A stretch of DNA of 64,000 nt from positions 2,316,274-2,380,273 of the forward strand of contig NC_071110.1 in assembly GCF_024256425.1 (NCBI RefSeq), written 5' to 3'. This DNA is from Clarias gariepinus (Eukaryota). The position numbers were made by a program, and so were the translations under genes. Under the pieces are notes generated by a model, which saw nothing but the letters and a program-made list of their open reading frames with translations, was not told the DNA's origin and did not search any database. This document shows, piece by piece, positions 13,440 to 49,704 of this stretch; position 1 is the stretch's first letter, and the number at the start of each line of letters is the position of its first letter.

Positions 13440-14202
13440 TATCCTGTTTATATACTCAGCAAAAAAAGAAACGTCCTCTGACTTTCAAATGTTTTTACTT
13501 TCAGTAAACTTAACGCGTAAATATTTGTATTAACACTAAAAGAGTCAACACCATAAGACATGTTTCACAATGTGTCCCTAAATGCCAGTCAGTATCTGGT
13601 GTGGCCACCAGCTGCTTGAAGTACTGCAGTGCATCTCCTCCTCATGGACTGCCTATTGCGGACAGTCTGAGCACTGATGGAGGGATTGTGTGTTCCTGGT
13701 GTGACTCGGGCAGTTGTTGTGGCCATCCTGTACCTGTCACGCAGGTGTGATATTCGGATGTACCCATCCTGTGCGGGTGTTGTTACACGTGGTTTTCCAC
13801 TGCGAGGACGATCAGCCGTCTTTCCTGTCTCCCAGTAGCGCTGTCTTAGGCGTCTCATGGTGCGGACATGGTGATTTATCGCCCTAGCTACATCAGCGGT
13901 CCTCATGCCTCCCTGCAGCATGCCTAATGCACGTTCACGCAGATGAGCAGGGACCCTGGGCATCTTTCTTTGGGTGTTTTTCACAGTCGGTAGACAAGTC
14001 TCTTTAGTGTCCTGCGTTTTTAAAACTGTGACTTTAAATGCCTACTTTCTGTAAGCTGTTAAGGTCTTAACGACCATTCCACAGGTGCATGCTAATTAAT
14101 AGATTATGGTTAATTGAACATGCATGGAAAACATTGTTTAAACGGTAAACAACTGTTTTAGCAACTTATCAAACATCGTATTTAACAAAATAATTACTAA
14201 TA
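13440..14202 (-). mobile_element. Tc1-like DNA transposon remnant. It is internally deleted and keeps the N-terminal part of the transposase ORF at 13589-13984. Its far end is separated from the rest by the BEL insertion.
   Basis: The ORF MPRVPAHLRERALGMLQGGMRTADVARAINHHVRTMRRLRQRYWETGKTADRPRSGKPRVTTPAQDGYI.. is a Tc1 helix-turn-helix N-terminal domain. TIR-like motif gacgtttcttt appears at 13458-13472 and in inverted orientation at 20922-20936. This block is absent from the paralogous position in copy A. Confidence 0.55.
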
Positions 14203-17200: not shown

Positions 17201-20200
17201 ACGGTATCAGCACCATACTCCTGTGCACCTTCTCTGATGGCTCTCCACAACCCATAAATGGCCACGGCGGGAGATGGCTGATTGCCAAAGACATGGACCT
17301 TCATTCAATACTCGATAATTTCCTTGTTGACGTCATTGACCTTGGCCATAGGAATCGAAAGAAGTTACGATGGTCATCACACACCAAGATACAATGGAAC
17401 ATCTGTTGAATGTCCGCTAGGATGGCAACCCTCTCTTTTCGAAATCTTAGCAGGACGCCAACAAGGGAGTTATTGAGGTTGGGACCTGTGAGGAGCACAT
17501 AATTGAGCGAGATGTCCGCGCAACGAGCACTGGAAATAAAGACCACCCTGATCTGCTTGGGTTTTTGAGGATGATAGACCCCAAATGTAGGAAGATACTG
17601 TTACATCCCTAGGGATGTATGCATATTAATATTTATTTGGGGTGTTGTTTTTTTCCCGCCCTTTGGGTGTGGCTGCTGGTTCCTTTGCTGTGTGCTCTTT
17701 TACTCTCTCTGCTTGCTTGGCAGTTAAATGCTCCCAGGTGATGCCAATCAGGGGGTGGCTACAGACGGTGCTGCTACAAAAGATCAGTGCACGCATTCCC
17801 GAGGAGAAGCTCATTTCTCCCCTGCTCCAGAATTGTGTTAGGGGGCCTGCTATCAGATAATTGTTGTTGTGGTGCAAGTATCAATGATTATAGATAATGG
17901 TTCAGTGAGTAGGTTGTATGTTTATTTTCTCTAGTTGGTGCAACCTACTTTAATATATATTTTCTTTGTTAGTGGTACTAAGAGGTATTGTAACTTTTTT
18001 TTTCTTTTTGTTATAGTTAAATGGGAAGACGTAGGGAGAGGGTGCCCTTTTATTTTGTTTAACCCATGTTTATCCCTGTTTTTCAGTTAGTAAGGGAGTG
18101 GACGAAAGCCTTTGTTGATTATTTCTTTTATTTTACTCGGTTAGGTTATTTAGTTATCCCCTTAAACAGCTAAAGTGTGTTTTGTTTGTTATGTTGGCCT
18201 TGACCCTCTCCTGAAATCATTTATTGCTCCAATGTTTTAGTACCTATAAATAAACCCTTGCTTAATTATCAAAAAGTGTTGTTGCATTTCTGGGGCAGTG
18301 GACTGAAGTGATCCTTCCACATTTTTTTTGTTAATTTCTTCCTTATAAGTTTAATTTCTTTTGTTACCCTCACTCCCACCCCTGGATCGAAGAATTCAGG
18401 TCTGGCTAATGAACTATTGCTCTGGTCGTATAGAATTACGTAGGCTTTGATGGCCATGTCTTTGGAACCTTCTGGGTACAGCTTTACAAGGCAGATTTTT
18501 GAGCATGAGCGGCCCCACTGACTTGGACCACAAACTTTTGTACAGCTTATATTGACTACAGCGTTATTAGAATTATCTTCTCTCTCCCCGCCATCCTCTT
18601 GTGATGGTGAAGGAGCCTTGACTGCTTGGGGTGATGGGCCAGGGTGCATGGCCACATCATGATAAATGCTTCCACATTCGGAGCATTCCACGGATTATGC
18701 ATTCCTTGGCGAGGTGAGAAATCGAAGAACAGCATTTGAAACATATTCCTTTCTCCTTGAGGAATGCCTTTCTGAAATCGAGAGGTTTGTTTCTAAATGT
18801 TCTGCATTTTTTTCAAGGGGTGCAGTTTATTGTGTAATGGACAGATTTTGTTAGGATCATCACCGGTTGCACATACATCTGTTTTGTGAACTGAGATGGA
18901 TTTGTTGGTTTGGAAACTCTTCACGATGGATCTGTCTGGTTTTGCAGTTGTAACACTGCTTTGATGCATAAAGCTTGGATCATTTCATTTTTTTGCTTCG
19001 TAGCACACAAAGTTACAGAAATCCTCAAAGGGAGGAAAGCGACCATAATTCCCTTCTTTGTAGCATGACCCAGAAGTCACCCACTTGTCCTGAAGTCCAT
19101 ATGGAAGCTTATCTATAATTGGTGCAATTCCACGTAAAGTGTCAAGGTATGACAGACCTGTGAGATAACCATCCTCTTTAGCTTCCTGGATTTTCATAAG
19201 CAAATCCCCCAGTTCACGTAATTGAATGTGGTCTTTAGCTGAAAACCTAGGAAAACTGTCCAATCGTTGATTCAGTGATCTTTCGATGATTTCTGGTGCA
19301 GCATAGCACTCATGTAGTCTTTCCCATGCTTTTTGTAGAGCCAGATTGGGATTATTGACATGCACTGAGCGGATCCGTTTCACTATTTCGCCAGATTACT
19401 TTCCCAGCCATTTCGTCATGAGGTCTAATTCCTGGGTTGCTGTGAGGTGAACTTTACGAGCTGCACTTGTGAATGAAGAATACCATGACCGATAATTTTC
19501 AGGCTTGTCATCAAATTGGTACAGTCCTGAATTAACAAGGTCTCGCCGAGCTAAATACTGTGCCAAAGGCTCTGCCTGTGGTGGCGTGCTATCTAGAGAA
19601 ATGTACTGAGCAGTGTAAGACTTGGCAGGTGTATTCATGATGGGGCTGGTCCTCCCAACTTCAGACTTAATCACACCTTCAGACAGATCAGAGAGGTATG
19701 TTGCAGGTAAGTGCATACTATCTGCTTTTTCAGACTTCGGCTTGTTTTTGGTAAACTGTGCGTTTTTAATGTCTTTCACAGCTGGACTCCACGTTATGAA
19801 GCTGTTATGTAAGTCGCCATGAAATGGAGGAGCAACGGGCAGAGCCGACAAGCGTGGAGAAGGAGAATGATTCTGAAGGTTGATTTAAGAATTGACATAT
19901 TCACTGGTACGTTCAATTTTAACTTTCTCTGATTCAGATCCTCCTCTTTCAACTGCGGCATGCATTGCTACTTCAGCATCTTCCAGCACTTGTGCCTCCA
20001 CAGCAGCTGCATCAGCTTCCCGTTGTAGTGTCAACACTTCTAACTCGGTGTCTATTCTTACTGTTTCCAGCTGATTTTGAGCTTCTCTTGTGGCCTTTTC
20101 CATTTTCAGTTTAGCCTCTTGGCTGGCATATGATGCTCCCACTTTGGCCGCTTCAGCTCTGGCCCGTGCAACTGGTCGTTGATCCGGATGACTTGCCACT

Positions 20201-20878
20201 TCTTGTGCTGCACACAGACGACTTGCTACTTGTGGCCATTTTAACCACTATTTCAATAAATAATGCCTTTTCACAATAATGTTCTCGTGCAGAGTGTTGA
20301 ACTCTGACTTAACACCAAGTTAAACCGTAGCCAATGAAGACAGAGTTGTGGTAACATCGATCATTTACTGTCACTCTTCATCATTAACATTTACAGTGAA
20401 AACTGTAATAAAACAATAGAGCAATATTCAGTGTCCGTGTCTTACATTGCATTACTATGCCTGTCTATAACAAACTACTGTTCTCCTTTAAATGGCAATT
20501 ACAATGGCTATTAGCATCACTGAAAGCTTGCACTCAACAGTAAATTACTAATATATACTCTTTAACATGTTTAATGTCAAAGAAATGAACTTACAGCATT
20601 GGCTCTATAATGCCTCTTAGTGGATGCAATGGATTGTTGAGCACACTATGACTATGTCATTGCCTTCACTCAGAACTGCGATTACACCGGAAGTGACTAA
20701 ACAGGAAGTAACCAAACAGGAAGTGATGTAATCATATAAAACGAATAATATGTTTACAAAATGAGGCAGATAAAGGAAAAGTCATTATAAACTTTACATT
20801 TCCACTTGAGAAAAATGTACCAAAAAATATTAAAAGAAACTATTTACAAGGTAAATTTCTTAAAGGACAAAACAGTAT
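14203..20878 (-). mobile_element. BEL/Pao-family LTR retrotransposon, about 6.7 kb, with LTRs at 14203-14525 and 20539-20878. The gag-pol region is broken into at least 7 ORFs by frameshifts. It is nested inside the Tc1-like remnant.
   Basis: Direct repeats of about 330 bp are read at both ends and are roughly 95-97% identical by eye. The ORFs give an integrase DDE core (14840-15670), RT with FYVDDGL plus RNase H (15745-17304), and gag-like coiled-coil and capsid segments (18269-20199). Confidence 0.85.
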
Positions 20879-22174: not shown

Positions 22175-24660
22175 TCAAATTCAAATTTTATTTGTCACAT
22201 ACAAAGTCATACACAGTATGATATGCAGTAAAATGCTTATACGACCGCCGGCGACCATAAAAAGAAAACAAAAAACTATATATAGGGAATAAATATCAAT
22301 AAAAGAAATAAAATACAAAGGAAAATAAATGTAACTAGTAAAATTAACAACTGTACAAATGATGGCATGTAAAAATATCACAAAAATTGAATTTTGGAAT
22401 ATGGGGGGGGAATATATATATAAAACTTTTTTTAAATGTTTTAAAGTGGCATTAAAATGTCTTAAAGTGTCAGAGTGGCAAAGTGTCATGTGCAATGGCA
22501 GGTAAACATGTATTGTATAAAGTGACATGTGCAATGGCTTCAGATATGTAAATATGTATTGCATGAATGTGTCCATGATTGTCCAGTCAGTGTCAATGTT
22601 TAAAAGACATTACTCCTGTGTGGTGTGATGTGATTGAGAGACCTTATCGCCTGCGGGAAGAAGCTCCTCCTCAGTCTCTCTGTGTTGGCCTTCAGGGAGC
22701 GGAATCGCTTCCCAGACCGCAACAGAGAAAACAGTCCATTGTTGGGATGGCTGAGGTCCTTCACAATCTTTCTGGCCTTGGTCCAGCACCACTTGCTGTA
22801 GATTAAGTGCAGGTCAGGGAGCTCGGTGCGGATGATGCGCTCAGCTGATCGCACCACCCTCTGTAGAGCTCGTCTGTCCTGCATGGTGCTGTTTCCAAAC
22901 CAGGTCGTAATGTTTCCCGTCAGGATGGTCTCTATGGTACAGGAGTAGAAATTCCTGAGCACCTTAGAGGGCAGTCTAAAGTCTCTCAAGCGTCTGAGGT
23001 GGTAGAGACGCTGCCGGGCTTTTTTTACCACGGTGTTGATGTGACAGGACCATGACAGGTCCTGCGTGATGTGAACACCGAGGTATCGGAAGCTGTCCAC
23101 TCTCTCCACTGGGCTTCTGTTGATGATGGGGGTCTGGTAGTTCCTCTCCTGCTTTGTACTAAAGTCCACTATCAGCTACTTTGTCTTGCTGACGTTCAGG
23201 AGGAGATTGTTCGTCTGGCACCAGTTCTCCAGGTTTCCAATCTCCTCTAGATAGGCCGACTGATCATTGTTGGTGATCAGGCCCACCACGACTGTAAGCA
23301 GCAAACTTGATGATGGCGGTGGAGTTGGTAGTGGCCACACAGTCGTGGGTGTACAAAGAGTACAGCAGGGGGCTCAGAACACAACCCTGAGGGGCTCCAG
23401 TGCTGAGAGTGAGTGAGGCTGAGACATGTCCGCCCATCCTTACTGCCTGTGGTCTGCCAGTCAGAAAATTGGAGATCCACTGACACATGGATGAGCTGAG
23501 TCCCAAGTGCTCCAGCTTGGTGGTGAGTGTGGAGGAAATTATGGTATTAAATGCAGAGCTGTAGTCGATGAAGAGCATTTTAACATAATTACCTTTCCTA
23601 GTGTCCAGGTAAGTAAGTGATGTGTAAAGGAGATGAGAGATTGCATCGTCTGTGGAACGGTTCTGGCGGTATGCAAACTGTAGTGGGTCGAGTGTGTCCG
23701 GTAGTGAAGAAATGATAGTCATTCAACGTCCTGACCAGGCGTTCAAAGCACTTCATCACTACTGAGGTGAGGGCTACAGGGCGATAGTCATTGAGAGAAG
23801 CAGGATGAGGTTTCTTTGGGACAGAAACAATGATGGACTCTTTGAACCATGTGGGGATCACTGACTAAGATAAAGAGATGTTAAATATCTCAGTGAACAC
23901 AGGTGCTAGCTGGTCTGCGCAGGCTCTGAGGATACGGCCTGAAATGCCGTCTGGTCCTGCTGCTTTCCTGGTGTTTACTCTCTTGAAGGCTCTTGAAAAA
24001 GTTGTGACTAGTTTCCTCCCGTAGCGCTGCTTCGCCTCTTTCACCGCCTTCCAGACGTTGTATGACGCAGCCTTGTATGGTTCCATGTCCCCCGACGCAA
24101 GTCCCGTGTTGTAGGCAGCGGTGCGAGATCTCAGAGCGTCGCAGATGGTTTTATCCACCCACGGCTTCTGGTTGGGAAACATTCTAATAGTCTTTTTCTC
24201 CACGGTATCATGCGCTAGTTTCCCAATGAATCCCACAACAGCTTCCGTAAACACGCTGACTTCATCATCGGAGCTGTTTCGGAACATGTCCCAGTCTGCG
24301 TCATCGAGTGCGTCCTGTAACGCGGCCACCGATTGGTCCGTCCAGCGCGCGACCCCGCTCTGAACCGTAACTTTCTGTTTCAGCCTTTGTTTGTATTTTG
24401 GCATGAGGAAGATGGCGGCGGGGTCGGATTTACCAAACGGAGGGCGAGATTGTGCCTTGTAGCCGTCCTTGACCGTTGTATAACAATGATCCAGTGTCCT
24501 TTCACCCCTGGTGGGGCAGATGATGTGTTGATAAAAGTTCTGCGCTGTGCGTTTGAGGTTGGCACTGTTAAAGTCCCCTGCCACAATAAGCGCAGCGTCC
24601 CAGTGTTGTGTTTGGTGCTGTGTGAGTGCCTCATGCAGCTCACATAAGGCAGTGTCCGTG
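22175..24660 (-). mobile_element. L2-like non-LTR retrotransposon, 5'-truncated. It includes the C-terminal part of the endonuclease, the RT and the 3' UTR.
   Basis: The ORFs show the endonuclease GDFN motif (23865-24584), RT motifs [34 protein letters not shown] and KFA (23264-23722), and the RT C-terminal RYLGVHITQDLSW..KKARQRLYHLRRL (22600-23169). Confidence 0.85.
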
Positions 24661-24699
24661 TCCGCTTGTGGTGGAATTCAAACGGCGCTGATTATAACC

Positions 24700-25570
24700 G
24701 ATGTAAATTTCCGAGGGAGATAAAAAGGACGGCACATGATCTCCTCCATTTTTCTGCCTGGCAGACCACAGGCAGTAAGGATGGGCGGACATGTCTCAGC
24801 CTCACTCACTCTCAGCACTGGAGCCCTCCAGGGTTGTGTTCTGAGCCCCCTGCTGTACTTTTTGTACACCCACGACTGCGTGGCCACTACCAACTCCACC
24901 GCCATCATCACGTTTGCTGACGACACTGTCGTGGTCGGCCTGATCACAAACAACGACGAGACGGCCTACCTGGAGGAGATTGGAAATCTCCTGCATGGTC
25001 CTGTCACATTAACACCGTGGTGAAAAAGGCCCGGCAGCGTCTCTACCACCTTAGACGCTTGAGAGACTTCAGACTGCCCTCTGAGGTGCTCAGGAATTTC
25101 TACTTCTGTACCATAGAGAGCATCCTGACGGGAAACTCTACAGAGGTAAGTGCGATCAGCTGTGCGCATCATCCGCTACAGCAAACGGTGCTTGACCAAG
25201 GCCAGGAAGATCGTGAAGGACCTTAGCCATCCCAACAATGGACTGTTCTCTTTGTCGCGGTCTGGGAAGCAATTCCGCTCCCTGAAGGACAACACAGAGG
25301 AGCTTCTTCCCGCAGGCGATAAGGTCTCTCAATCACACCACCACACAGGAGTAATATCTTTTTTTAAACAATGACATTAACTGGACAATCATGGACACAT
25401 TTATGCAATACATATTTATATATCTGACCATTGCACGTGACACTTTCTCAAGCCACTTTTCATGCATATTTGCACAGCCATTGCCACTTTATTTCTATAT
25501 TTTGTTATATTTTTATTATGCCCTTACTTGTACAGTTTATTTTACTAGTTAAATTTTCTTTCGTATTTCT
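24700..25570 (+). mobile_element. Second, near-identical L2-like fragment in the opposite orientation (mid-RT to 3' UTR, with an internal deletion of about 260 bp). It abuts the minus-strand copy head-to-head.
   Basis: The plus-strand ORFs at 24736-25374 encode the same RT peptides. 24760-24820 is the exact reverse complement of 23400-23460. Confidence 0.8.
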
Positions 25571-25899: not shown

Positions 25900-27160
25900 A
25901 TATACTGTATTTCTAATCTATTCAAACTCATTCAAACTCATCTATCTATCTTAGAAACATGCTAGCAACTTTGCTAATCATGCTAGAAACATGCTAGCGC
26001 CTTTGCTATTCATGCTAGAAACATGCTAGCAACTTTGCTAATCATGCCAGAAACATGCTAGCAACTTTGCTAATCCTGTTAGAAACATGCTAGCAACTTG
26101 CTAATCAATCCAGAAACATGCTAGCAACCTGCTAATCATGCTAGAAACATGCTAGTAACTTTGCTAATCATGCTAGAAACATACTAGTAACTTGCTAATC
26201 ATGTTAGAAACATGCAAGCAACTTTGCTAATCATGCTAGAAACATGCTAGCGCCTTTGCTAATCATGCTAGAAACATTTTAGCAACTTTGCTAATCATGC
26301 TAGAAACATGCTAACAACTTGCTAATCATGCCAGAAACTTGCTAGCAACTTTGCTTATCCTGTTAGAAACATGATAGCAACTTGCTAATCATGCTAGAAA
26401 CATACTAGCGGCTTTGCTAATCATGCTAGAAACATGCTAGCGACTTGCTAACCATGCTAGAAACATGCTAACGACTTGCTAGTCATGCTAGAAACATGCT
26501 AGCGACTTGCTTATTATGCTAGAAACATGCTGGGAACATGCTAATCATGCTAGCGACTTTGCTAATCATGCTAGAAACATACTAGTGACTTTGCTAATCA
26601 CTAGTAGCATGATTAGCTAGAAACATGCTATCATGCTAGAAACATGCTAATGACTTTGCTAGTCATGCTATAAACATGCTAATCATGCTAGAAACATGCT
26701 AGCGACTTGCTAATTGTGCTAGAAACATGCTAGCAACTTTGCTAATCATGCTAGAAACATGCTAGAGACTTTGCTAGTCATGCTAGAAACATGTTAGCCA
26801 CTTGCTAATCATGCCAGAATCATGCTAGCCACTTGCTAATCATGCTAGAAACATGCTATCCACTTTGTTAATCATGCCAGAATCATGCTAGCCACTTGCT
26901 AATCATGCTAGAAACATGATAGCAACATGCTAGCAACGTCCCAATCATGCTAGCAACATGCTAGTAACTTACTACAAATTCTAGCACCATGCTAGTAACT
27001 TGCTAATCATGCTAGCAATATGGTAGTAACTTGCTAATCATGCCTGAAACATGCTAGCAACATGCTAGTAAATTGGTAGTCATGTTAACAACATGCTAGT
27101 AACTTGCTAATCATGCTAGAAAAAATTCTGGTAACTTGCTAATCATACTAGCAACATGTT
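25900..27160. repeat. Minisatellite with a roughly 31-bp unit (catgctagaaacatgctagcaactttgctaat) in about 40 tandem, slightly divergent copies.
   Basis: Direct reading of the periodicity. Confidence 0.95.
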
Positions 27161-27389
27161 AGTGACATTCATCAATGTGTGTAATGTGCGCTGCAGGTGC
27201 AAAACATTTTGTATTATTATCCAAGTTGTAGGCTAGTCAATATGGGTGGTATCTGACATTAAGGATCCGCAACTGTAACCACAAACTTCATAGTGAATGA
27301 ATCTATCTATCTACAGATGTGGCCATTAAGACTGCGCGTGTTTTCCCGCGGAATGCCTCAATTTAGCGCAAGGCGCGCTGCGACTTGCC

Positions 27390-30290
27390 GTAAGCAACAT
27401 TCGGGAATTTAAATAAATGTGTTGTGCTTCACTGAATATCCGCCAGATGGCGCATGGAAGGACTTTATTTAAACGCCGGACCAAGTACTGTACAACGAAG
27501 AATTGTGTATAATTACTTCGCCTAAAACAATATTGTTTCCAATGCTGAAGCAAACATGAATTTTATTTTGCTTTACAACAGATCTTTCATGATAAATGTG
27601 TATATGTGCTTCATATTTTTTTCATAATGATGAAATGAGATGCCCAAATTCGTGCTTTAAAATTCTTAATAAGTTTCTTATATATTTTTTGTAATGTTTT
27701 AACAGGGACAAAACAGTGAAAGACATGGCAATGTCTCGGTTTACATGGTGTTGAAATTAATTTAATTTCCTGATAATAGGCTATCTGATAGTCTTAACTG
27801 CGAATGTCCTGATTCGTGAATATGCCAACATATCTTATTTAAAACGTAAAAAATGTGTTGACATCATCAGAAAACATGAATGAACTATATATATTATATT
27901 ATTAAGTAAATATTATTTTATGAACACGAACTTCTTCTGGCTTTTTATAATAATCATCATATTTGCTGTTTGTGTCCAGCATTTAATAATTATTTCATAC
28001 ATTATTTAACCACGGCTGGAAATAATAGCTGGAATGTGATGTGATTGTGAATTCATGACTGAAATAAAGCAGTTTGTCTTTTGTAAAGTACTTTCACTTT
28101 ACAAAAGGCAGCGTTTTTTCAAAAGGTTGATAAACGCGTGTTGTACAGTATATACACCGCGACAGCGCGCGCAGTTACTCACTTCTCACCTTTTATGTAG
28201 GTCTGCTCGGACTAATTCATTTTAAACCCCTCAAAAATGCGTGTGTATACAGCTCAAAACCTCCATCAGTTAAAGATAGCATCTATTTAGAAAAAATGCC
28301 CAGTGATTTCGCAGCTTCAGAAAATCTCCCGGCGCTCTGCGCATAACACCGGGCCAACTCATGTCAGAAAGAATTTATAAACGGTTTCTAAACGTGGGCT
28401 ATTGTTTTTTTTACTTATAGTATTTGTTAATTTAATTTAAATGAGCTTTGGGCTCAGGACTTCGATTCGGCATCGTGATTCTCCCCTTTAATTTACTCCA
28501 TAGTTTTAATCAGCGCTCAGCCGCATGCATAAAGTTTTCCAGAGCGCACCGGCAGAATGATTATGAACTCGTCGGGAAAACAGCAAGCAGACTGACTCTG
28601 ACCATTTAAAAAAACGTTTGCGTTCATTTTCTGACGCGCTCAAGTTCACCAAAAACAATACAGAGCAGCGCAGCTTATTTGCTTTCAAACATTTATAAAA
28701 TCACGTTTTTTCGTTATTGTGAGTGCGCTTAAATAAAAGTTGAGTCTTATAAAGGCATGTAGTCTTATATAGTTTTATTATATAATTTTTGCACATTAAT
28801 CAGAGTCCTCATCTGTTACATTTTTAAGGACAATATTTTTTTTTCAGCCTGTCACGGCGTGCGCCCAAATCAATATCGCTCCTCGCTCACTAGTTAGGCG
28901 GCCTCCCCTTCAGATATGCGAAGAAGCGGGGCTGCGGAATTAGGCACGAATAGTGAAGAAAAGCTCTTCTTGCTAATATTCCCCGGCTTCCAATCCGCGC
29001 TATAAAATACTCGGGGTTTGTTGGTTTACAGTGGATTTTACTAGGCAGTGTGAGCGAGACGCGCGCACACAACGCGGAAGTGCGGCATGCAAACGGGGCA
29101 ATTGGAACGCGCCCCAGAGACTTCAAAGAAGAGCAAGCGCGAGCGGACGGAGGCAGGAGCTGCTGTCCGCGGATGGCCGTCGTACTCGTATTTTATAGCG
29201 CAGGGTGCAAACCCGGATCATTGGCATGGATGAGCTATGTCCAGCTCTGTACCAGCATGTCATGTGGGCATTATAAGACTAAAAAGTGGCAGCTGGCACG
29301 CCTAAAAATAGACGCAGGTTAATTTTTTTATAGTCTAAATTAAAATCCTCCTCTTTAGTGCCTCCTATTCCTATTAATCCTATTGTTCTTTTAGTGTCAC
29401 TGCGTATGCTTACAATGCCAGACAACATTTAAATGCAAATTATTCACTCTCCCCAAGTGTAAATCAGCTGTTCTCACCTATACATATTAACCTATACGTT
29501 CTCACCTAAAGTGTTTAGGTAAAATTCCACCTATACAAGTGTGACAAATATGCAAAGAAAAAAAATAGGAAGGGGCAAATACTTTTTCATGCCACTTCAC
29601 ATGTAGTCAGATTGTTCCACTGGGCTGAAACTGTAGCAAGTGGAGTTATAGCACTTTTCAAATCACACTAACTATACACTGATATGAATAACTTTGAATG
29701 ATAAATGCTACGTTAATATGATCTCGGGCTTGCTCCACATTATAAAAGCAAAGCGCGGAGATGGAGATCAGGGAAGTACGTGATGTGATGGAAAAGAGGC
29801 AGTGGCGGTTCTGCACTGAATTGCTCCGCGGGCGAGACTCCCTCCCGCCCCCCCGTCAGCGCCACTTCTAAGCAACCAAACCCCCTGTCTGAAGTCTGCT
29901 CGGTCTTGTTTTAAAACCCCCAATTCTGTGAATTTCCCCAGCAGCGAAACCGGTTTGATGACTTCACACCTGTTGTAAAGGTGAGATGGGGGATTACAGT
30001 AACTGTGGGTGCGCTTCACCTCGGAGCGCGCTGTCGCGTTGTATTCAATGAATAGACTAAAACAAAATCATGTTTGCTTCAGCATTGGAAACAATATTGT
30101 ATTAGGCTAACTTTATTAAAGATTATACACTTTTTTATTCTTTGTTCACACACGTGGGCATCTTTAAATTTTTGGATATTGATCCTTTCTCGATGCAGCG
30201 AATTTTCTGAGCAAATTAATAATAATTTCCATGAATGAAAAGGAGGAAGAAGAAAAGGTTACGCGAAAATAAGAAAAAGTTTTAGAGGTA
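27390..30290. other. CpG-rich block bounded by long imperfect inverted repeats. The left arm is about 27390-28260 and the right arm about 29880-30290. It may be a foldback-type element or a promoter-containing unit.
   Basis: 27475-27570 is the reverse complement of 30055-30160 with about 70 nt near-identical (catgtttgcttcagcattggaaacaatattgt). 28163-28215 is the reverse complement of 29960-30040 (cgcgacagcgcgc..cagttact..tctcaccttt). CpG density is far above the surrounding AT-rich DNA. Confidence 0.55.
28995..29207. promoter_or_regulatory. Mini-palindrome with two inward-facing GCGCTATAAAATAC TATA-box-like motifs, at 28995-29008 on the plus strand and 29188-29201 on the minus strand. They flank a 180-bp GC-rich core.
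   Basis: Direct reading. Each TATAAAATA also supplies a T4/A4 run that could act as a Pol III terminator for a transcript starting from the opposite motif. Confidence 0.35.
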
Positions 30291-31671
30291 AATGCTGTGA
30301 AATGCTTCAAATAAACAGATTCTGCCTATAACAGGTCAGGGACAGTGAGGCTGGACCCAGCAGCGCACCACATCCCACATCATAATACATGCTGATGATG
30401 ACCAACACGTCTCCCCTGATCTACCAGAGCCAAGTAAAAAGAATGGCAATCAAACAGAATAAAATTAGTAGCAGCATTAACTTGTGCTAGTTATTATGAT
30501 GGTGGTCAATATTCATTGAAATAATGTTTCTCAGCATTATTTCGTGGTAATATTGACTACCATAATAATTAAAGAATTAAATAAAAAATATTGTCTTTAT
30601 AGATTTATATGTTGTTTGTCTTGATGTTCTTTTTTTTGTTTGTTTCTTTGACCCAATATATGTTCAGTGAAATTTCAAATAACATGTTTAAATAGCATTG
30701 ATTTCTGTATTGTGTGATATTTTTATACTAGTAACTGGTGTTAAAAATGTATCTCTACATTAATGAGCCAATGTATTATGGTGTGGGCTGCTGTTGGCCA
30801 GGAAGTCCAGGGCCACTTTTTGGTCCCAGTTCGCCCCTGTAATAACGAATGGAGAAAGCGCAGTCAAAGCCCGGGGATTCTGTGTTCCGCGGGGGCCAGT
30901 CGTGAATAGCTGTCACTCAGTGACAGCCAATGAAATTGAAGCATTTTTGCCGCTTTCCACGTGGTGTGGCGTTGCTTAAATAATATCCGTATAATATCCG
31001 TATATCCTATAAAATCGTCCAGACTCTGGTTAGAATCCCGCTCTGGGTGAAAATGTAATAAATGTGAATCCTTTGTTTTACACTTTTTGCTTATGATAAT
31101 CATTAAATTATAGCAACTGTGTGGTGAGTGCTAATGTGTTTCATAGCTTAAGCAAAAAAAAAATTCAATTGCAAACATGCATTTAGTACTGAAGCATAAC
31201 TTGATAATGTAATGGCTATATATTTATTAACATAAATAGTGTTGGTACAACGAATTTTTCAGTTGTAAATTAAGTTGATCCAACTCAAGTAAATTTTAAT
31301 TTTAAGCCCTGGTCAACAGAATTCGGGGAAGGAAGGAAACATAAGACAAAGGGGATAAAACGGAGATTTTTATTTTATATTTAATAAAAACCATGTTTTA
31401 CACCAGCAGCAACTTACAAATGAGGTTTGAATTCGAAAAGATGTACAAAACATAAAACACAAATAAGTACTAATTATAGAGAAAAAATAAAAAATAAAAA
31501 CCAATCGAAATGTTTTGTACTTTATAACTGTACGTTATGACTTTGACCGTTAGATACGGTTGGTCAGGAAACTCCTCAAGTCAGATGCAGACAGGACACT
31601 GTTCATTTACAAACTGTTGTGAAAAAAACAGATTTAATTAAAATTCATGATATTTAAATTAGCAAATATAT

Positions 31672-31687
<16 letters not shown>

Positions 31688-31735
<48 letters not shown>
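31688..31735. repeat. (TA)n microsatellite preceded by poly-A. A similar (TA)n plus poly-T tract lies at 49397-49472.
   Basis: Direct reading. Confidence 0.95.
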
Positions 31736-31740
<5 letters not shown>

Positions 31741-32199
31741 CTTTGTTCCCATCACTTCACAACTCATGAGAACAGACCGAATTAACCACTGATTAAGCAC
31801 CGCATATAACCGTCGGTATTTTAATTGTGATTAAAAATAAAAAAAATAGCTTAAACCAAAATAACGTGACTAAACATTGCTAAACAGCAAGTGACATTTA
31901 TGTTCAGTATTTCGTTTCTATTTAGAAAGATGGGAATTAATTCCTGCTTACCTTTTCCACACGCCCGTCAAACGTTTGTCTTCCCAACAAACTGTTCTTT
32001 TCTCGCGATGTTTGCTTTGATATTTCCAGTTTTAATAGTGACAAGATCTCTTTGGTTTATCTCAACATAAATCGAATCTAATACATGTTAAGTTGTTGAA
32101 TTTCATGCAAATACAACAATTTATTCATGTTCATCTTGGAAACATGAAATTATGTACAAAACACATATTATATTTTGGTACATGTTACAGGTAGCCAAC

Positions 32200-32470
32200 T
32201 TCCTTTCTTTGAGTGTATAATCCAAAGGATTTTGCATGCACCCATTCGGATCTTCCTCATCCCCAAAGTCATTAATACACACCTTACAGTAACTGTAGTC
32301 AATGGATCTTTTAAGAGATTTAGACACACTGGACTCTCTTGATCTGTTAAAATACCTGCCTCTGCCATTTTGCAGGAGTCATACACTGGGGTGAGGGTAT
32401 GTGCGTGGGTTTGGAGATTGCCTAAGAGGTGGCCGAGTTTCGTTTTCTGGGAAAAGAGCTTCATATAGTT
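32200..32470 (-). pseudogene. Orphan, frameshifted remnant of a finTRIM exon 1. It keeps the 5' UTR, the ATG and part of the RING.
   Basis: The two overlapping ORFs read ..SPVCLNLLKDPLTTVT.. and ..SYCKVCINDFGDEEDP.., which match CPVCLDVLTEPVT / SYCKVCINGCWDQEDV of genes C and D. The nucleotide blocks cattaatacacaccttacagtaactgt and cctctgccatttt are shared with 39600-39790. No downstream exons are present. Confidence 0.65.
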
Positions 32471-33099
32471 CTTTTTATGGTTTTGTGTAAAGGTGTGGCT
32501 TTAAAGAGACAGATTTTTGTATTGTAAATCAGTTTCTGTGATATACCCATATAAAGTTAATTTGGCTTTATGCAAACTTGAATGCATTTACAGTATATAA
32601 TGTTAATGCATAAAAAAAATCCATTGATAGTGCTGACTAATTAAACCACAAAAACTGACATTAATTTCACAAAAAATATAAATGCATTTGAACCAAATAA
32701 AATTAAAACAAATGTACAAAGCAGCGGTCCATTCTTCATACGTCATTAACTCAGTTAGCTGGATTTGATTGTTGTGGATTTGTCCTGATCTTGGATTGTT
32801 TCGTTCTTCGATGCGCTTCTCGCATTTGCTGTCATATCAACATATCTGTAAGCTTAAACCCGCTTGGAAGCAGGTTTATTTAATGTGAACAGGATTTGGG
32901 CTCCGCTCCAACAATAATCAAAGGCATATGGCAGAACATAGGCTCTATGGCAAGACAGACAATTAAGGACATATACAAACAAACTAAGCAGGGAGCTAAA
33001 ACGGGACAAGACTAGAAACACAGTGGGACTAGAGACACTAAGACTCCAGAGACCGGGCTAAAGATGAGACTAGAGACACACGAAGAGACTATGGCTAGA

Positions 33100-33230
33100 G
33101 GCATGGCAGTTAGCTAAACATGATAATTAGCTAAACATAGCAACTAGCTCAACATGGCAATTAGCTAAACATGCACCTAGACAAACACGCACTTAGCCAA
33201 ACTTACCAACTAGCTAAACACACTGGGAAA
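33100..33230. repeat. Short minisatellite with a roughly 14-bp unit ttagctaaacatgn.
   Basis: Direct reading. The motif resembles the reverse complement of part of the 25900-27160 unit. Confidence 0.7.
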
Positions 33231-35217
33231 TAACAGGACACAACCAACAATACTTACATAAACATTAAACACACACCACACCTCACATGACCGAGTCAGC
33301 TCCACAAACATAGACGCACACTGAACATAAGACATAGCTAACACTACAGCCTTTTTATCTTAACAAAACAAAACAAAATGCCCACATAACGACAGTAATC
33401 TTTAAACAATGCTCAACCCAGTTTCCCAGACTAAACAGCTATTTATAGATGATCTAATGGTCTACCTTGGTTCAGGTGTGCACTCGCATCACCTGACCGA
33501 GGTGCCTTCTGGGAAACAAAAGAGTCTGCAAACAAAACTACAAAAAAATTAAAACAGTGACCTCTAGTGGTGGTCCCATTCTGACAGAAAACTACTGCAG
33601 CGGCAAATCACAGCTTTTGCTATTTCCAGTTATCATGGGCTGTGGATAGTTAATAGTAAATACTACATGCACAATATACTTAACATTATAGTAAATAATT
33701 ATACTTAAAATTATAGTAATTGAATTGCTTTAGTGAAAATGGCTAACGTTATTGGATGCAATGCTAAATAAGGTAATTTAACTCACTTTTTTCAGGATGG
33801 GTTTGCTAAAACATCCAACTTGCAAACTAAATATAAACATAAATAATCACAAAGTATATTAAAATTATATCCTCTTTTAATTTAATAGTTTAAATCCACT
33901 TTTTAATGTCGAGTTACATTAATGAAATCACAGCCGTGCGTCAGTTGTTTGTGGCCTGCTTCCCTTCTAACTGAAAATTCCTGCGGTTACTTTGGACAAT
34001 CAAAAAAGACCAGCAGCTACTTCGGCCAACCGGTGCTTTGTTGCTTTGCCTAATAGGTAACACAGCAACTGATCATTCATGAAACAGTAATTGTGGTCAG
34101 ATTTATGCAGAAGTGAATAATAAATTCCATTTTTTATTGATAGCTACAAGTGTTGACTGAATGTATTTATTATTTAATTAATAAATACATTCGAAAATGC
34201 TACGATAACATTTATTAAAAGGTTTTCAGAAGTATTTGGTTTTTGCAATATATGTTTTAGTTTTACATTTTATTTTCCAGTAGTTTTTTTTTAATTGCTA
34301 TTATAATTAATATTTAAGATAAATATTAGAAAATGTAAATGTTGCTTCATATTTTGATGTGGAAATCTATGTTTTGTTCATAGAGTGTATGCTATCTGCA
34401 CATGTAATACAAAGGGAGTAAACTAGCAGTGAAGGTTACTGTACCCTTGATGTAAGAACAATTATGTACCTTCAATTCAGTTGTACTTTAAAAGGTAAAA
34501 AAATGTATCTCCAGAGGTCTTTTGCGTGACATTTAGGGTAGATTTATCAAAAAGGTACAAAACTGTTTTTAGAGAAACATTATTTGCACAACTGTGTAAA
34601 TTTTTTTTCTTAGAGTGTATAAAAAAAGCACCACCTATACTTATACATGCAAAAAGGGTAAATAAAATAGATTTAAAATGTACTTTTGGATTAAATATTT
34701 AAAATAAAATTAAAAAATTAAAATTAAAAAATTAAAATAATAATATTTTGTCTATTATTGTCGGTACTTTTATTGATATAACACCACATTATAATTTGCC
34801 ACCAAGAATATGTAGAAAAAATTTCTCTGCTAAAAAAAATCTTATAATCAAGAATCTCACTTTTAATACTAAATACTAACATTATAAAAAAAAAACACAT
34901 TCTGTTATAGTTGGGTTTTTTGTGTGTGTGTCAGTTACTGTAAATGTAAATGGAATAATTTAACTTTTATTTTAATAGGACTCTTGGGTAATATAGCATA
35001 TTGTATTAGCTGTAAGCCTTAAAATGTAAAAATCTTATACACTTAGTAACAGACGTTTTAACATAGTTAAGTTTATTGTCTTCACTTTTAGCGGAAAGCA
35101 GAATCAATCACAAGACACATCAAGACATGCAATTTTCTGCTAAATAGTGAAATTCTCAAGTAAGCTTCTCAAAACAATAAAGTTTTTAATTTACTTAGCA
35201 ATTTTCCACAAATTCTA

Positions 35218-35744
35218 TTTTGGATCACATAACCTCATAGGGGAATCATAACTCCATATAGAGAACCCAGCGTACAGAGGCTGAGTGAATGTGGTGTGCA
35301 CTGTGTGGAGGAGGCTCATCGTGTCAGGGACGCTGTAGAAGGACAAAGTTCCTGCATTGTGATCTACATACACTCCTATTCTGGAGGACGCTGAACCTTG
35401 AAGCTCAGTTATAATGCTATTGTGCCGGAAACAAACAGAGGAAGAAGAACACTCCAGACTCCAAGATTGACTGTTGCGTCCAAACCTACACTCTTTGCCC
35501 TCTCCTTTCCTGCTGATCTCTTTATATGAGACTGATATTTCCACACCAAACCCGCTCCACTCCACCTCCCAGTAACAGCGTCCACGCATACTCTCCTTAC
35601 ACAAGACCTGAGGCCAGGAGTCAAATCTCTCTGGATGATCAGAGTATCCTTGCTGTTTCCTACTGAGAGTTACATCTCTGTTGTTTTTAAATATAAAGAG
35701 TTTGCAGTTTGCTGTGTTGGGATCCAGAGTCAGATAATTAAAAT
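35218..35744 (-). CDS. finTRIM-like gene C, terminal B30.2 exon. It encodes (D)FNYLTLDPNTANCKLFIFKNNRDVTLSRKQQGYSDHPERFDSWPQVLCKESMRGRCYWEVEW...GVYVDHNAGTLSFY..PLYAGF..CDPK and the stop codon is at 35215-35217.
   Basis: The acceptor is tttcag|ATTTTAA, phase 1. The frame is open from the acceptor to the stop. Confidence 0.8.
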
Positions 35745-37554: not shown

Positions 37555-39170
37555 CTAAAAGAAAATTAAATCATTTTAATTATTTCAGTATCAGAAAATC
37601 AGTTGGTCATTATTATCAGCCAATAAAAAAAGGGTTCACTCATGTTCTAGGTGACTTTAAATGTGAATACCTGTTAAAGTTTCACCTCTCTATGTGTACT
37701 GTGCAAAAGTCTTAAGCCATCATACACCGTACACAAGTACCCGACGGTAACCCACCAAACACGGGGAGAACATGCAAACTCCATGCACACGAAGACGGGA
37801 ATCGAATCTAGCCGGGAAAGCCACCCATCTATTCATATTAAATATAATTAAATAAATTTAGACTAAATAAAAAAAATGGGAACAAAGTTTCTACTGTGAC
37901 AGACTGCAAAGTGCCCACAGTATAAACAATATACAGTACAGTGGAACTTTTTCTTTTCTTATTTGAGTTTTTTACAGAAAATTTAAGGAAGTGTGTATGT
38001 GTGAGAAAAATGTGTCTGAATAATAATGAGATGAATAAATGAATGATAAATGAAATGTCTCTGATGAGCGAGCCAAGGGTGACGGCGACAGTGGCAAGGA
38101 AAAACTCCCTGAGATTGCAATAGGAAGAAACCGTGAGAGGAACCAGATTCAACAGGGAACCCATCCTCATCTGGGTGATAACAGATAGAAAGTAAAAATA
38201 AAACAAATTAACCTGCACTTTATCTTTAAAAATAAATGCTACAGAGCAGTGTTTCTGTGTAGAGCAGAGAGTGTGTATGTGTGTGTCGAGAGGAGGAGGG
38301 GTGTGTGTGTGTGTGTGAAGGGGCACGGTGTCTAATGATAAGCGAGAAAATAGATCTTTAATCTCTTTTGCTTTCTTTTTGCTTTACATGCGCACACACT
38401 TGTGTTATAATAAACAGTACACGCATGCTGTACACACACGCATACAAACACAAAACAAAATATGTTTTACACGCGCACATGTGGTCACAGGGTTATAGTA
38501 AACAGTAAACAGAGTGAGAGACACGCTCTAAGATCGAACAGAGGAGACGATTACCCACAATTCCGCAGCGCAAGAGAGAGAAAAACCGTTGGCTGTGTTG
38601 TGATCACGTGATGCTCGATGTCAAAACAAGAAGCGCATGCGTGATGCATGATACTCGGTACTCGTAAACGCAGACTTGTTCATTTTTCAAGTCAAAATTT
38701 AATAAAAATGGTGCAGAACATTCGCAAACCGTGTTACCCATAATGCGCGAGTCCACTGATTGTATATTGTAACTAGTTTTGGTTTTGTTTGAATGTGTTA
38801 TCTTGAAGAAATAACAACTTTTACATTACATTAAAATAGACCAGAATTATTCATTGTACTGAAACACAACATGAATTCAATTGCATTCAGACATAAAAAT
38901 CTTATCTTTTATCTACATGAGTTATGAAACAAATGATACTTGTAAGAAAGACCACACCCAAAGCTGAGTTCTTCCTTTTTACTCGCCAATGAACTTATCT
39001 AAAAATGAATCTCCATGTTCCTTTCTCTACCACACGACTGCTCTGACCTGTTTTATACTTTCTGACCAACAAACCTCTTCTAACAAAAATTCCCCTTACA
39101 GTGAGTGACTAAAAAAGGAACTACTATATTATTACTTACTTAAAAAAGTATAATGATTACAAGTTCTCAC

Positions 39171-39770
39171 CTCTTTTTCAGTTCTTTCTACTTTAGCTAA
39201 AACTGTATCATGATCTGTATGTCCATCCATTTTACACAAGTAACAGATGAAGCTTTGGTCAGTACAACAGTAGATGTCAATTAGTTTGTCGTGCTGAGAG
39301 CAGATCTTCTCTTGGAGATCTGCACAGGCTTCCACTAACTTGTGTTTCTTAAAGGCAGGAGACTGATAGTGAGGTTCAAGATGATCTTCACAATAAGAGG
39401 CCAGACACACCAGACAGGAATTAACAGCTTTGCGTTTTCTTCCAATGCAGGAATCACACTCCACATCTCCAGGTCCAGCGTAAGAGTAAGCAGGAGAAGG
39501 GGCTTGGACTTCAGTCTTCTTTAGTTTCACCACCACTTCAGCCAGAATGTTGTTCCTATGTAGAACAGGCCTTGGGGTAAAAGTCTCTCTACACTGAGGA
39601 CAGCTGTAGACACCCTTCACATCCTCCTGATCCCAGCAGCCATTAATACACACCTTACAGTAACTGTGACCACAGGAATTAGTCACTGGTTCTGTCAGGA
39701 CATCCAGACACACTGGACAGGTGAAGTGATCCACTGACAGCTTATCTACTAAAATATAGTCCTCTGCCAT
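39171..39770 (-). CDS. finTRIM-like gene C, exon 1. It encodes the C3HC4 RING plus B-box1 plus B-box2 and begins MAEDYILVDKLSVDHFTCPVCLDVLTEPVTNSCGHSYCKVCINGCWDQEDVKGVYSCPQCRETF...
   Basis: The 212-aa ORF at 39132-39770 carries canonical RING and B-box Cys/His patterns. The donor is ACTGAAAAAGAG|gtgagaac. Confidence 0.85.
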
Positions 39771-43500: not shown

Positions 43501-44770
43501 GTGTACAGAATTTAGCGCATCTTGGGGCCCAGGAAATGATGCGTGAGCCTGCCCAATCAATATTGGGATTGTGAGAACTGAGCCACGGTAAACCCAGTAC
43601 GACGGCTTGGTCTAGCTGAGGAATCACAAAGAATTTTAATTCCTCCGCATGACCGGGAAATTTTAACCGGAGGGGCACGGAAAGGTTCAACAGGCGAATA
43701 CGCTAAGGTTTTGCCATCTAGAGCCTTAATTGCGATCGGATGCGGAAGCTTCGACACTGGAGCTTGCAGCGAGGAAAGGACAGCAGACGAGACGAAGTTT
43801 CCAGCCGACCCAGAATCTATTAGGGGAAACACAGAGACAGAACGATTATTATATGACAAGGTGGCCTGTAAACAAAAATTGTGGTGTGTGCGAGGTGGAG
43901 TGCGTGTAGTTACTTTAAGTAACGGACAGTTTCGGAGCTGATGTGTACCCCCCCACAGTATAAACATAACCCCGACGACAGCCTTCGGTGCCTCTCCTGG
44001 GCCGACAGGCGGGATGTGCCCACGTCCATGGGCTCCGGCGAGCTCTCCTCGCGCGGCTCGACGGGGGGTTTGCTGTCGACGCGGTTCGGACCCTCCGCTG
44101 GCTCCTTTCGCTGGATAAGGTCTGCGATGTCCGCGGAGGTGCTGGTCCAGCTTAATCGCCAGTTGGATGCTGTCATCTAGCGACAAACCCGCGTCCCTGC
44201 GTGCCAGCTCCAGCTGCAGGTCGGGGTGCAGTCCATCTCTGAACCTGGCAAGTAAGCTCTTGCTGCACCAGCCACTCTCCGCGGTGAGGATCTGAAATTT
44301 CACGGCGTAGTCCGCCACTGTAGATTGTCCTTGTTTCAGCCTCAGCAGTTGTTGTTCCCCCGTCCTTCCGTGGTCAGGATGGTAGAACACCGCGCGAAAC
44401 TCGTGGAGAAACTGGTGGTAACTGGACGTGGTGCTCCTGCCAGCGTTCCATACTGCGGTGGCCCAGTTCAGCTGTTGGATGACAAAACTGACCTTCTTTC
44501 CCTCTGAAAGATCAGGAAAGTCGGCCAGGTAGAGCTCGCAGGCTAGGAGGAATTTCTTGCACCCCTCGGGGTCTCCTGCGTATCTCTCCGGAGGGGCTGC
44601 CCGTGGTGGAGAGCGTGCGGACCGGCGTTGGGGCGTGGCCAGTGGTGAGGTTCTGAACGCCGCGCGCCAGGTCGTTGACTGACCTCGCCAGCACGTCGAT
44701 CTGTCGTTGCTGCCGTCGGACGTAATCGAGGTAGGGGGGTTCATCTTCAGGGAGGGGAGGTCTGTTCATC
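40503..44770 (-). mobile_element. Ty3/Gypsy chromovirus-like LTR retrotransposon internal region (gag-protease-RT-RNaseH-integrase-chromodomain). It is degraded by frameshifts, and no clear LTRs were identified.
   Basis: The ORFs give RT with YLDDILIYS (42818-43690), RNase H (41864-42685), an integrase DDE core (41308-41769) and a C-terminal chromodomain ..LVDWEGYGPEERSWVPARDV.. (40503-41360). A small tandem duplication gtttaacatatgagtata x2 at about 42810-42860 sits in the gap between the RT and RNase H ORFs. The element is CpG-rich compared with the host DNA. Confidence 0.85.
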
Positions 44771-49466: not shown

Positions 49467-49704
49467 TATGACCAGTTCAGAGGTGTATGAGTGAGGCAGA
49501 AATAAAATCCTTAATTTTAGCCTCTGTTACTCTGTGTCAGTAATTCATACAATTATTATTTCAAATGAGACCATGATGATGAATGTAATGCAAAAAATGT
49601 GGGAACTGTGCTCTTTTTACTTTGGTTATACTATTACTGGATCAAAAAAAATTAAAGGGGTGAAATTTAACAGGTTAAATCTAAGTTTAAGTCATCTTCA
49701 TTTA

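Follow-up and report, generated by a model that had tools for sequence, protein, structure and literature searches.

A CpG-retaining non-coding block in a catfish finTRIM cluster is probably framed by a dead, non-autonomous hAT element

Non-autonomous hAT elements, such as maize Ds, have only their ends in common with their autonomous partners (PMC3260210). In the Buster type, an autonomous hAT has a length of 2.5-3.0 kb and requires a few hundred bp of subterminal sequence, and the left and right ends of AnBuster are 32.7% identical; long inverted repeats are not found at canonical hAT ends (PMC12637253), which normally have terminal repeats of only 10-20 bp. DUF4371 is a domain of hAT transposases (PMC3985635). 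Foldback and other long-inverted-repeat elements have long imperfect inverted arms around a non-coding middle; in Foldback elements the arms consist of tandem subrepeats and the middle domain is small or absent. Some mobile elements have a CpG-rich non-coding 5' region, and those of the LINE-1 type are normally methylated and decaying. Non-methylated islands in zebrafish have a high observed/expected (o/e) ratio of CpG at background GC (PMC3583005). However, island predictions from CpG ratios are mostly false positives in cold-blooded vertebrates, and UCSC-type predictions have a precision of about 0.52 in zebrafish (PMC5161304).

The block described here is part of a 64-kb stretch of Clarias gariepinus DNA (the window) and lies between immune TRIM genes, in the TE-rich spacer DNA of a finTRIM cluster. 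Its surroundings are dense in transposable elements: Pao/BEL, LINEs and an LTR element that is called Ty3/Gypsy-like from the order of its pol ORFs, RVT_1 alone being checked. LINE fragments ~3 kb to the left of the block are, like its arms, arranged head-to-head. The minisatellite on the left and the LINE have only (ATCT)3 in common with the block and no terminal repeats, and a tie to either was rejected. From the hAT terminus to the end of the right arm, the block measures 2.93 kb (Table 1). We conclude, with a probability of roughly 0.6, that it is transposon-derived non-coding DNA framed by a hAT-superfamily element that is dead and non-autonomous. The first-pass annotation had described a CpG island with inverted arms, a central palindrome and no coding capacity. 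Most of that description is real, including the arms, the central pair of 14-mers and the lack of coding sequence; the term CpG island was too strong.

Table 1. Parts of the block, in window coordinates.
Feature	Position	Strand	Remarks
hAT-like 5' terminus (CAGATGTGGCC...) and subterminal region	27314..27573	+	homology to L008 16999-17224
AT-rich block, about 571 bp, 27% GC	27574..28144		splits left arm, missing from right arm
Left arm, inner part	28145..28233	+	carries ATACACCGCGACAGCGCGC (28152-28170)
Left-side unique interior, CpG-retaining	28234..28961		CpG o/e 1.0-1.7; not homologous to right interior
Central small inverted repeat	28962..29236		two inward GCGCTATAAAATAC 14-mers round a 177-bp spacer
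Right-side CpG-poor interior	29237..29536		CpG o/e 0.34, TG+CA o/e 1.20 for 29237-29605
Tc1-like transposon 3' terminal fragment	29537..29605	+	match to L012 7808-7871 (H. guttatus)
Right-side unique interior, 54-55% GC	29606..29893		no homologue found
Right inverted arm	29894..30245	-	inverted copy of 27395-27573 + 28145-28233; core 30059-30110, block 30026-30044

The evidence for a hAT origin begins at the left edge. Positions 27312-27537 are homologous to a segment (L008) of a finTRIM cluster in Hemibagrus wyckioides (CM032610.1), with 74% identity over 211 aligned columns, a local alignment score of 144 (shuffles 36 +/- 6) and a BLAST match of 147 bp at 70.7% (E 2e-12). The homology starts at the identical base in both species, (T)ACAGATGTGGC, and the flanks are unrelated: in the window it comes after (ATCT)3, and in L008 after a gag-like ORF, truncated, that belongs to an LTR retroelement. 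A shared start base between unrelated flanks is the behavior of a mobile-element terminus. In L008 the terminus is followed by a leader of about 700 bp and then by frameshifted ORFs, apparently remnants of a hAT transposase, which match the Pfam families zf-C2H2_12 (E 7e-11, above the cut-off) and DUF4371 (E 4.6e-4, below it). The hAT identity of these ORFs draws on those two matches, one on each side of the threshold, and on the motifs DESTDV, TDGAPAM, HCIIHQ and LLLHNSVRW, which we take to be typical of hAT. The left terminus of the element reads CAGATGTGGC, and its first bases, CAGAT, fit what we take to be the hAT consensus, (C/T)A(A/G)NG, at 4 of 5 positions. The homology identifies position 27314, the left boundary, as the 5' terminus of a hAT-type element and the ~220 bp that come next as the 5' subterminal region of the hAT family. 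The partner element in L008 looks Buster/Charlie-like.

In several respects the block resembles a deleted or rearranged element of the Ds kind. It has its 5' terminus, beginning with CAG, and its subterminal region in common with a transposase-bearing copy, its non-coding interior is unrelated to the autonomous element, and it is about 2.9 kb in size. Only some 225 bp are homologous to the hAT copy. Apart from the Tc1-like fragment, the 1.75-kb interior gave no homologue; the 64-kb window holds no second copy, and the 272 kb of catfish DNA that were sampled yielded L008 as the only homologue. Unlike a complete hAT element, the block has neither a recognizable right terminus nor an 8-bp target-site duplication, and its ends form an inverted repeat of about 270 bp at 79% identity. 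Long inverted repeats are not a feature of canonical hAT ends, and this arm pair therefore calls for a further step in which the 5' end was duplicated in inverted orientation.

The long imperfect inverted arms reported by the first-pass annotation are there. Their core pairs 27517-27569 with 30059-30110 (53 bp, 92%), and an inner block pairs 28152-28170 with 30026-30044 (19 nt, 95%). The symmetry axes of these two pairs, 28813.5 and 29098, differ by 285 bp, and the left side therefore has 570 bp of extra DNA. When the AT-rich block at 27574-28144 is removed, the arms align: 27395-27573 joined to 28145-28230, against the reverse complement of 29945-30245, gives a global score of 188 (shuffles 80 +/- 8) and 79% identity (187/237) with 92 gap columns, so that about 265-300 bp are paired at 79%, with gaps. 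An outward reach to 27390 and 30290 had also been proposed; a marginal extension to about 27398/30237 (p ~0.02) is seen, with no pairing beyond and no sharp ends. The segment 27395-27573, which includes the core, is both hAT subterminal region and outer and middle left arm. The right arm, 29894-30245, is identified by alignment as an inverted copy of the hAT subterminal region. Since it is homologous, in inverted orientation, to the left subterminal sequence, both edges of the block come from one transposon end.

The arms share only a 9-mer splice donor, AGGTGAGAA, with the exon-1 donors of the finTRIM genes, and an origin as TRIM exon/intron remnants was rejected. A Foldback-type element had been among the earlier candidates. 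A transposon origin is favored by the hAT 5' end and the Tc1-like 3' end, but the Foldback type is not: TRF found no tandem subrepeats in the arms, the unique middle is 1.75 kb long, and one arm is a hAT end. The Tc1-like fragment matches the H. guttatus sequence at 81% over 64 bp (E 2e-7), where the matched segment follows the C-terminus of a Tc1-type transposase and ends ...CACCACTGTA. The AT-rich block, which contains a hairpin with a 16-bp stem (28074-28111), may be a small nested element, with TA flanks and a weak terminal inverted repeat.

As the first-pass annotation stated, the block has no recognizable gene. Rfam gave no match at gathering scores and otherwise noise at E>2.7 (searched to E<=5), scans for tRNA and tmRNA found none, and neither the six frames of the block nor the plus-strand frames of 30300-35200 contain a Pfam domain. 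No transposase was found within the block. All stop-free segments of 35 aa or more (42, including the central ORF) lacked a homologue among 5.8 billion proteins, and a search of 1.84 billion representatives with the longest (121 aa) was also negative. Viral contigs, scanned twice, gave no DNA homologue, and the sole metagenome match, L001, is a 22-mer shared by chance with a bacterial contig. Consensus motifs for ISRE, NF-kB, NRF1, E2F and CTCF are absent from the block or not enriched. Two other motifs are in excess, weakly after multiple testing: the STAT-like TTCNNNGAA, with 5 sites where about 1 is expected, and the 13-mer GCCTAAAACAATA (<=2 mismatches), which occurs 9 times in the window, 5 of them within the block.

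At the center, the two facing repeats noticed earlier are exact copies of GCGCTATAAAATAC, at 28997-29010 (+) and 29188-29201 (-), and they are the only matches in the window at <=2 mismatches. Weaker pairing reaches 28962/29236 (score 45 vs 31 +/- 5). Each 14-mer has a CCAAT box upstream, and the spacer between them is CpG-rich, with 56% GC. No stable RNA or DNA structure was found in the spacer (z = -1.6, +0.35 and -0.41), the energies being those of shuffles on both strands, and a structured small RNA there was rejected. By eye there is no motif like a proximal sequence element (PSE). A Pol III type-3 gene or an Rfam ncRNA gene was rejected, with no covariance-model match and an unstructured spacer. 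A plus-strand transcript would meet a T4 run 6 nt past its predicted start in the spacer. Most simply, this TATA/CCAAT inverted repeat would be a putative internal promoter-like sequence of the element.

The first-pass annotation also set the block apart from the host DNA by composition. Its CpG o/e does stand out (1.02 vs 0.54 for the window), but its GC content is that of the window (39.2% vs 39.6%), and the o/e of GpC is likewise inflated (1.49). The patch-robust ratio CpG/GpC is 0.68 in the block, 0.51 in the window and 0.44 in the median 400-bp window; young retroelements in the window, at 0.85-1.15, are above the block. Positions 29250-29700 are CpG-poor, with 4 CpG and a CpG/GpC of 0.21. 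By the classic definition of a CpG island (Gardiner-Garden and Frommer: >=200 bp, GC >=50%, CpG o/e >=0.6), about 28900-29300 and 29700-30000 qualify, whereas the block as a whole does not (GC 39%). What distinguishes the block is an excess of alternating-GC motifs. In 4.6% of the window's length it holds 27 of the 102 occurrences of GCGC, 20 of the 62 of CGCG and 5 of the 8 of GCGCGC, but only 3 of the 110 of GGCC. Six GC-alternating 6-mers (GCGCGC, CGCGCG, CGCGCT, AGCGCG, ACGCGC and GCGCGT) together have half of their window occurrences (19/38) in the block, a density of 6.5/kb vs 2.2/kb in the Gypsy-like LTR retroelement at 40.5-45 kb. The top island-predicting 6-mers of zebrafish (PMC5161304, Table 2) include five of the six, GCGCGT being counted via its reverse complement ACGCGC, the form listed there.

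TG+CA is not in excess in the block (o/e 0.95-1.16, and 0.95 for 28145-29236; window 1.23). In comparisons that involve few CpGs, CpG is kept about as often as other dinucleotides, both between the 79%-identical arms (5/12 vs 135/299) and between the species (6/21 vs 105/295). The Hemibagrus leader has a CpG o/e of 0.95 and a TG+CA o/e of 1.10, whereas the adjoining transposase ORFs have 0.17 and 1.44. Because the leader keeps its CpGs and the adjacent ORFs have lost them, CpG retention goes with this transposon sequence. We infer that the richness in CpG and GCGC is a trait of the non-coding 5' leader of the hAT family and not that of a host gene promoter. In contrast to leaders of the LINE-1 type, the hAT leader has retained its CpGs even though the copy is old and its ORF decayed.

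With a high CpG o/e at background GC and island-predictive k-mers, the block has the composition of a fish-type non-methylated island. It could be an orphan promoter or regulatory island, perhaps recruited from a transposon, an idea that is compatible with the transposon origin and that we consider somewhat unlikely. The block would then be unmethylated in the germline, and putative non-coding transcription from both TATA boxes would give transcripts with a ~135-nt 5' overlap, each running ~1 kb to the mirrored donor AAG|GTGAGA in the arm ahead. The intergenic position, the TATA and CCAAT motifs, the island-like center and the retained CpGs here and in Hemibagrus are consistent with this. So are the donors at 28192-28184 (minus strand, inner left arm) and 29978-29986 (right arm), the only two in the block with 8/9 consensus positions; measured from the TATA that faces each donor, the downstream distances are 984 and 1007 nt. 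However, these two are one homologous site counted twice, the TATA boxes converge, and neither side has a gene, exon, conserved ORF or Rfam family. CpG/GpC is only 0.68-0.80, below 1, in sequence that is transposon-derived, and the poor record of CpG-ratio predictions in cold-blooded vertebrates also argues against an island. A bolder version is unlikely: the 5' leader of the hAT family might be a self-protecting, transposon-borne non-methylated island in two catfish lineages, and its derivative in the window (2 kb) might act as an orphan, mirror-symmetric pair of putative non-coding transcription units, with two inward TATA promoters, inside the finTRIM cluster.

The block might also never have been mobile. 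Template switching or fold-back repair in the fast-rearranging TRIM cluster could have copied ~300 bp of a resident hAT end, inverted, to a place 1.75 kb away, with unrelated resident DNA as the interior. Several observations agree with such a local rearrangement. Nothing in the right arm corresponds to the terminal 84 bp (27314-27397), the terminus (CAGATGTGGCCATTAAG, <=3 mismatches) has no inverted copy in the window, and a scan for terminal inverted repeats and target-site duplications around the block found no termini and recovered only the internal core. The expected duplication, TCTATCTA, is present only at 25941 and 27302/27306, all left of the element, in a test that cannot succeed without the right end. 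The interiors, 28231-28961 and 29237-29944, do not outscore shuffles when aligned over their full length or quarter by quarter, in either inverted or direct orientation, which also rules out a perfect whole-block palindrome. One stretch of 33 bp runs opposite to the arms, and the head-to-head LINE fragments to the left fit as well. The symmetry of the block argues the other way. The axis of the 14-mer pair (29099.0) coincides with that of the arm block (29098.0) to within 1 bp, which would be unexpected for randomly placed arms, although the innermost arm blocks are off that axis by 10-14 bp. There is also no positive sign of a repair event, and we regard this origin as quite unlikely. That read-through of both arms gives a fold-back duplex and, from it, endo-siRNAs or piRNAs, as the first-pass annotation had suggested, is highly improbable and without positive support: the arms are complementary and include a perfect stretch of 33 bp (27527-27559 with 30068-30100), but this is the longest such pairing between arms that are 79% identical, with many indels, and 2.3 kb apart.

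We therefore return to the dead hAT-derived element, whose history may have been as follows. The unit would formerly have had two ends that could be bound by a hAT transposase supplied in trans, and it would have moved by cut-and-paste. The AT-rich insert splits the left arm, and the interior also holds the Tc1-like 3' end. The element would now be immobile because neither its right terminus nor a target-site duplication survives in recognizable form.

The apparent orphan CpG island with its palindrome is thus largely explained by a decayed hAT-derived element and nested repeat debris. The block is an ordinary kind of sequence, but its CpGs have been kept unusually well. The part worth keeping is the differential decay of CpG: the leader retains CpG and GCGC motifs over about 26% divergence, whereas the coding region decays. 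If germline methylation data bear this out, it would be a fish-genome example of a DNA-transposon end that acts as a non-methylated island. Such ends, if so, might supply new promoters in the neighborhood of fast-evolving immune genes.

The left edge of the block (27314-30245) is the 5' end of a hAT transposon. Comparison DNA sampled around catfish finTRIM genes (272 kb) yielded two informative matches. The segment 27312-27537 is homologous to positions 16999-17224 of a Hemibagrus wyckioides locus (L008, chromosome CM032610.1), with 74% identity (E = 2e-12) and a local alignment score of 144 versus 36 +/- 6 for shuffled sequences. The homology starts at the identical nucleotide in both species, (T)ACAGATGTGGC. 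Directly upstream lies (ATCT)3 in the window and, in L008, an LTR-retroelement gag-like ORF that is cut off there, interrupted by the element (16999-18740; CM032610.1 ~1,702,886-1,704,627). Because this sharp edge is common to both species and the flanks are unrelated, the boundary resembles a transposon terminus. Downstream of the terminus, L008 has a non-coding leader of ~700 bp, after which come frameshifted ORFs truncated at their 3' ends. These ORFs contain the motifs DESTDV, TDGAPAM, HCIIHQ and LLLHNSVRW, which are typical of hAT transposases. Their Pfam hits are zf-C2H2_12 (E = 7e-11) and, short of the threshold, DUF4371 (E = 4.6e-4), a domain of hAT transposases (PMC3985635). No transposase of this kind is encoded in the window.

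The inverted arms described in the first-pass annotation are real. Positions 27517-27569 pair with 30059-30110 (92% over 53 bp), and 28152-28170 pair with 30026-30044 (95%). On the right the pairs adjoin each other, but on the left they are separated by 582 bp, indicating that the left arm holds ~571 bp of extra DNA. Once this DNA is left out, an end-to-end alignment can be made between 27395-28230 and reverse-complemented 29945-30245 (score 188 versus 80 +/- 8 for shuffles; 79% identity, 92 gap columns). The subterminal part of the hAT 5' end is present a second time, inverted, as the right arm. The block itself is non-coding and holds other repeat debris.

We infer that the block derives from a hAT element and is non-autonomous. 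The transposase of the family, acting in trans, would have bound both ends of the block and moved it. The right arm would have arisen when the 5' end was duplicated in inverted orientation, either as the derivative formed or afterwards. Such a duplication best explains the right arm because hAT ends do not normally form long inverted repeats; the left and right ends of AnBuster, for example, are 32.7% identical (PMC12637253). The block can be likened to Ds elements, which have only their ends in common with the autonomous Ac (PMC3260210), and it is the same size as autonomous Buster-type hATs (2.5-3.0 kb; PMC12637253). Neither a right terminus nor an 8-bp target duplication was found, which counts against a simple insertion. 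In a rival reading to the non-autonomous derivative, a resident hAT end was copied in inverted orientation by a purely local event.

The window is teleost DNA with a finTRIM-type gene cluster on the minus strand. The best protein matches of these genes are all from catfish (Tachysurus, Hemibagrus, Pangasianodon and Ameiurus; 76-80% identity), and exon identity to Tachysurus and Hemibagrus loci at the DNA level is 81-95%. These matches point to a siluriform-like fish as the source of the window. The block sits within a 22-kb, TE-filled spacer between two TRIM genes that also contains a Pao/BEL LTR element, a minisatellite of 1.2 kb and a pair of LINE fragments in head-to-head orientation. Elsewhere in the window, the LTR retroelement upstream of a finTRIM exon is not CpG-depleted and thus looks young, and an AT-rich patch and its adjoining repeat may be a young DNA transposon.

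Features of the window, with coordinates
Feature	Coordinates	Strand	Description
RING/B-box exons	3357-3749, 39132-39770, 56834-57445	minus	finTRIM-type genes
B30.2/SPRY exons	9111-9611, 35215-35604, 49702-50196, 52771-53178	minus	finTRIM-type genes
Orphan finTRIM exon-1 pseudogene	32200-32400	minus	2 kb right of block; degenerate, frameshifted RING-exon remnant, reads MAEAGILTDQESPVCLNLLKDPLT... / ...YCKVCINDFGDEEDPNG
AT-rich extra DNA in left arm	27574-28144		~571 bp
Minisatellite	25952-27163		31-32-bp unit TAGAAACATGCTAGCAACTTGCTAATCATGC, ~38 copies, ~80% identity
(ATCT)3	25941-25952, 27301-27312		either side of minisatellite; right-hand copy adjoins hAT terminus
L2-like LINE fragments (two)	22519-25446		22519-23059 vs 25446-24990, 78%; 23231-23474 vs 24989-24744, 91%; 3' end of one, ...GACAAATAAAATTTGAATTTGAA
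Third L2-like LINE copy	59308-60493
Pao/BEL LTR retrotransposon	14192-20874	minus	Peptidase_A17 and integrase domains; 332-bp LTRs (14192-14519, 20543-20874), 96% identical
LTR retroelement, judged Ty3/Gypsy type by order of pol ORFs	40503-44744		long, intact-looking gag and pol ORFs; directly upstream of a finTRIM exon 1; CpG/GpC 0.94
Near-palindrome	30493-30569		78 bp, 77% self-complementary; arms 30493-30513 / 30549-30569, 90%; looks like a small MITE-like hairpin
AT-rich patch	47000-48000		no CpG depletion, CpG/GpC 1.15
132-aa ORF	47210-47608	minus	basic RRRRERKNRRRYWVH motif, no Pfam match
Repeat adjoining AT-rich patch	46458-46792		repeats 3920-4163 at 92-95%

The block had also been described as a CpG-rich island, and this holds only in part. 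With a GC content of 39%, its CpG o/e is 1.02, versus 0.54 for the window, but its CpG/GpC ratio is only 0.68 and one part (29250-29700) is CpG-poor. Much of the apparent CpG excess reflects patchy G+C, since GpC o/e is 1.49. The CpG/GpC ratio is above the window median (0.44) and below that of nearby young retroelements (0.85-1.15). What distinguishes the block is a surplus of alternating-GC words (GCGC, CGCG, GCGCGC), not general G+C. In L008, an old, broken copy, the leader (16999-17700) has a CpG o/e of 0.95 and a TG+CA o/e of 1.10, and the adjacent transposase ORFs have values of 0.17 and 1.44, the classic signature of methylation-driven decay. CpG retention accompanies this TE sequence. 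CpGs are kept about as often as other dinucleotides both between the arms (5/12 versus 135/299) and between the window and Hemibagrus (6/21 versus 105/295), although counts are small.

Non-methylated islands in zebrafish have high CpG o/e at background GC (Long et al., PMC3583005), a composition that the block matches. The 6-mers enriched in the block belong to the top-ranked predictors of zebrafish islands tabulated by Huska and Vingron (PMC5161304, Table 2); the block has 19 of their 38 occurrences in the window, a small count, and they are three times as dense as in the CpG-rich, Gypsy-like LTR retroelement at 40.5-45 kb. Predicting islands from CpG ratios gives mostly false positives in cold-blooded vertebrates (PMC5161304), and we consider it unlikely that the block is a functional non-methylated island. 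Germline hypomethylation of this TE-derived sequence is a plausible addition to the hAT origin, not the main explanation.

At the centre, the facing pair of TATA-containing 14-mers is exact and occurs nowhere else in the window. Its symmetry axis (29099.0) agrees with that of the inner arm block (29098.0) to within 1 bp, and the innermost arm blocks are displaced by 10-14 bp. A decayed perfect palindrome is ruled out, because the two ~825-bp interiors show no homology in either orientation and a 33-bp piece (28201-28233 / 29894-29925) is in direct orientation, flipped relative to the arms. The near-equal lengths of the interiors between arm block and 14-mers (28171-28996, 826 nt; 29202-30025, 824 nt) may be coincidence. 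Positions 29537-29596 share 81% identity with a Tc1-like 3' terminal repeat from H. guttatus (L012), where the repeat comes after a transposase C-terminus and ends ...CACCACTGTA. The fragment in the block accounts for the CpG-poor right interior, at least part of which is a foreign insertion. Each of the two inward-facing TATA boxes has a CCAAT box upstream, and the sole strong donor-like sites in the block (AAG|GTGAGA) lie 984 and 1007 nt downstream. They are the two homologous copies of a single arm site, and beyond both there is no exon, ORF or RNA family; the block has no coding or known RNA signal, as the first-pass annotation had proposed.

The structure is real and for the most part ordinary: the block is probably a new, unclassified hAT-derived element, non-autonomous and holding nested repeats. 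It leaves one modestly interesting and testable oddity, the CpG-retaining leader.
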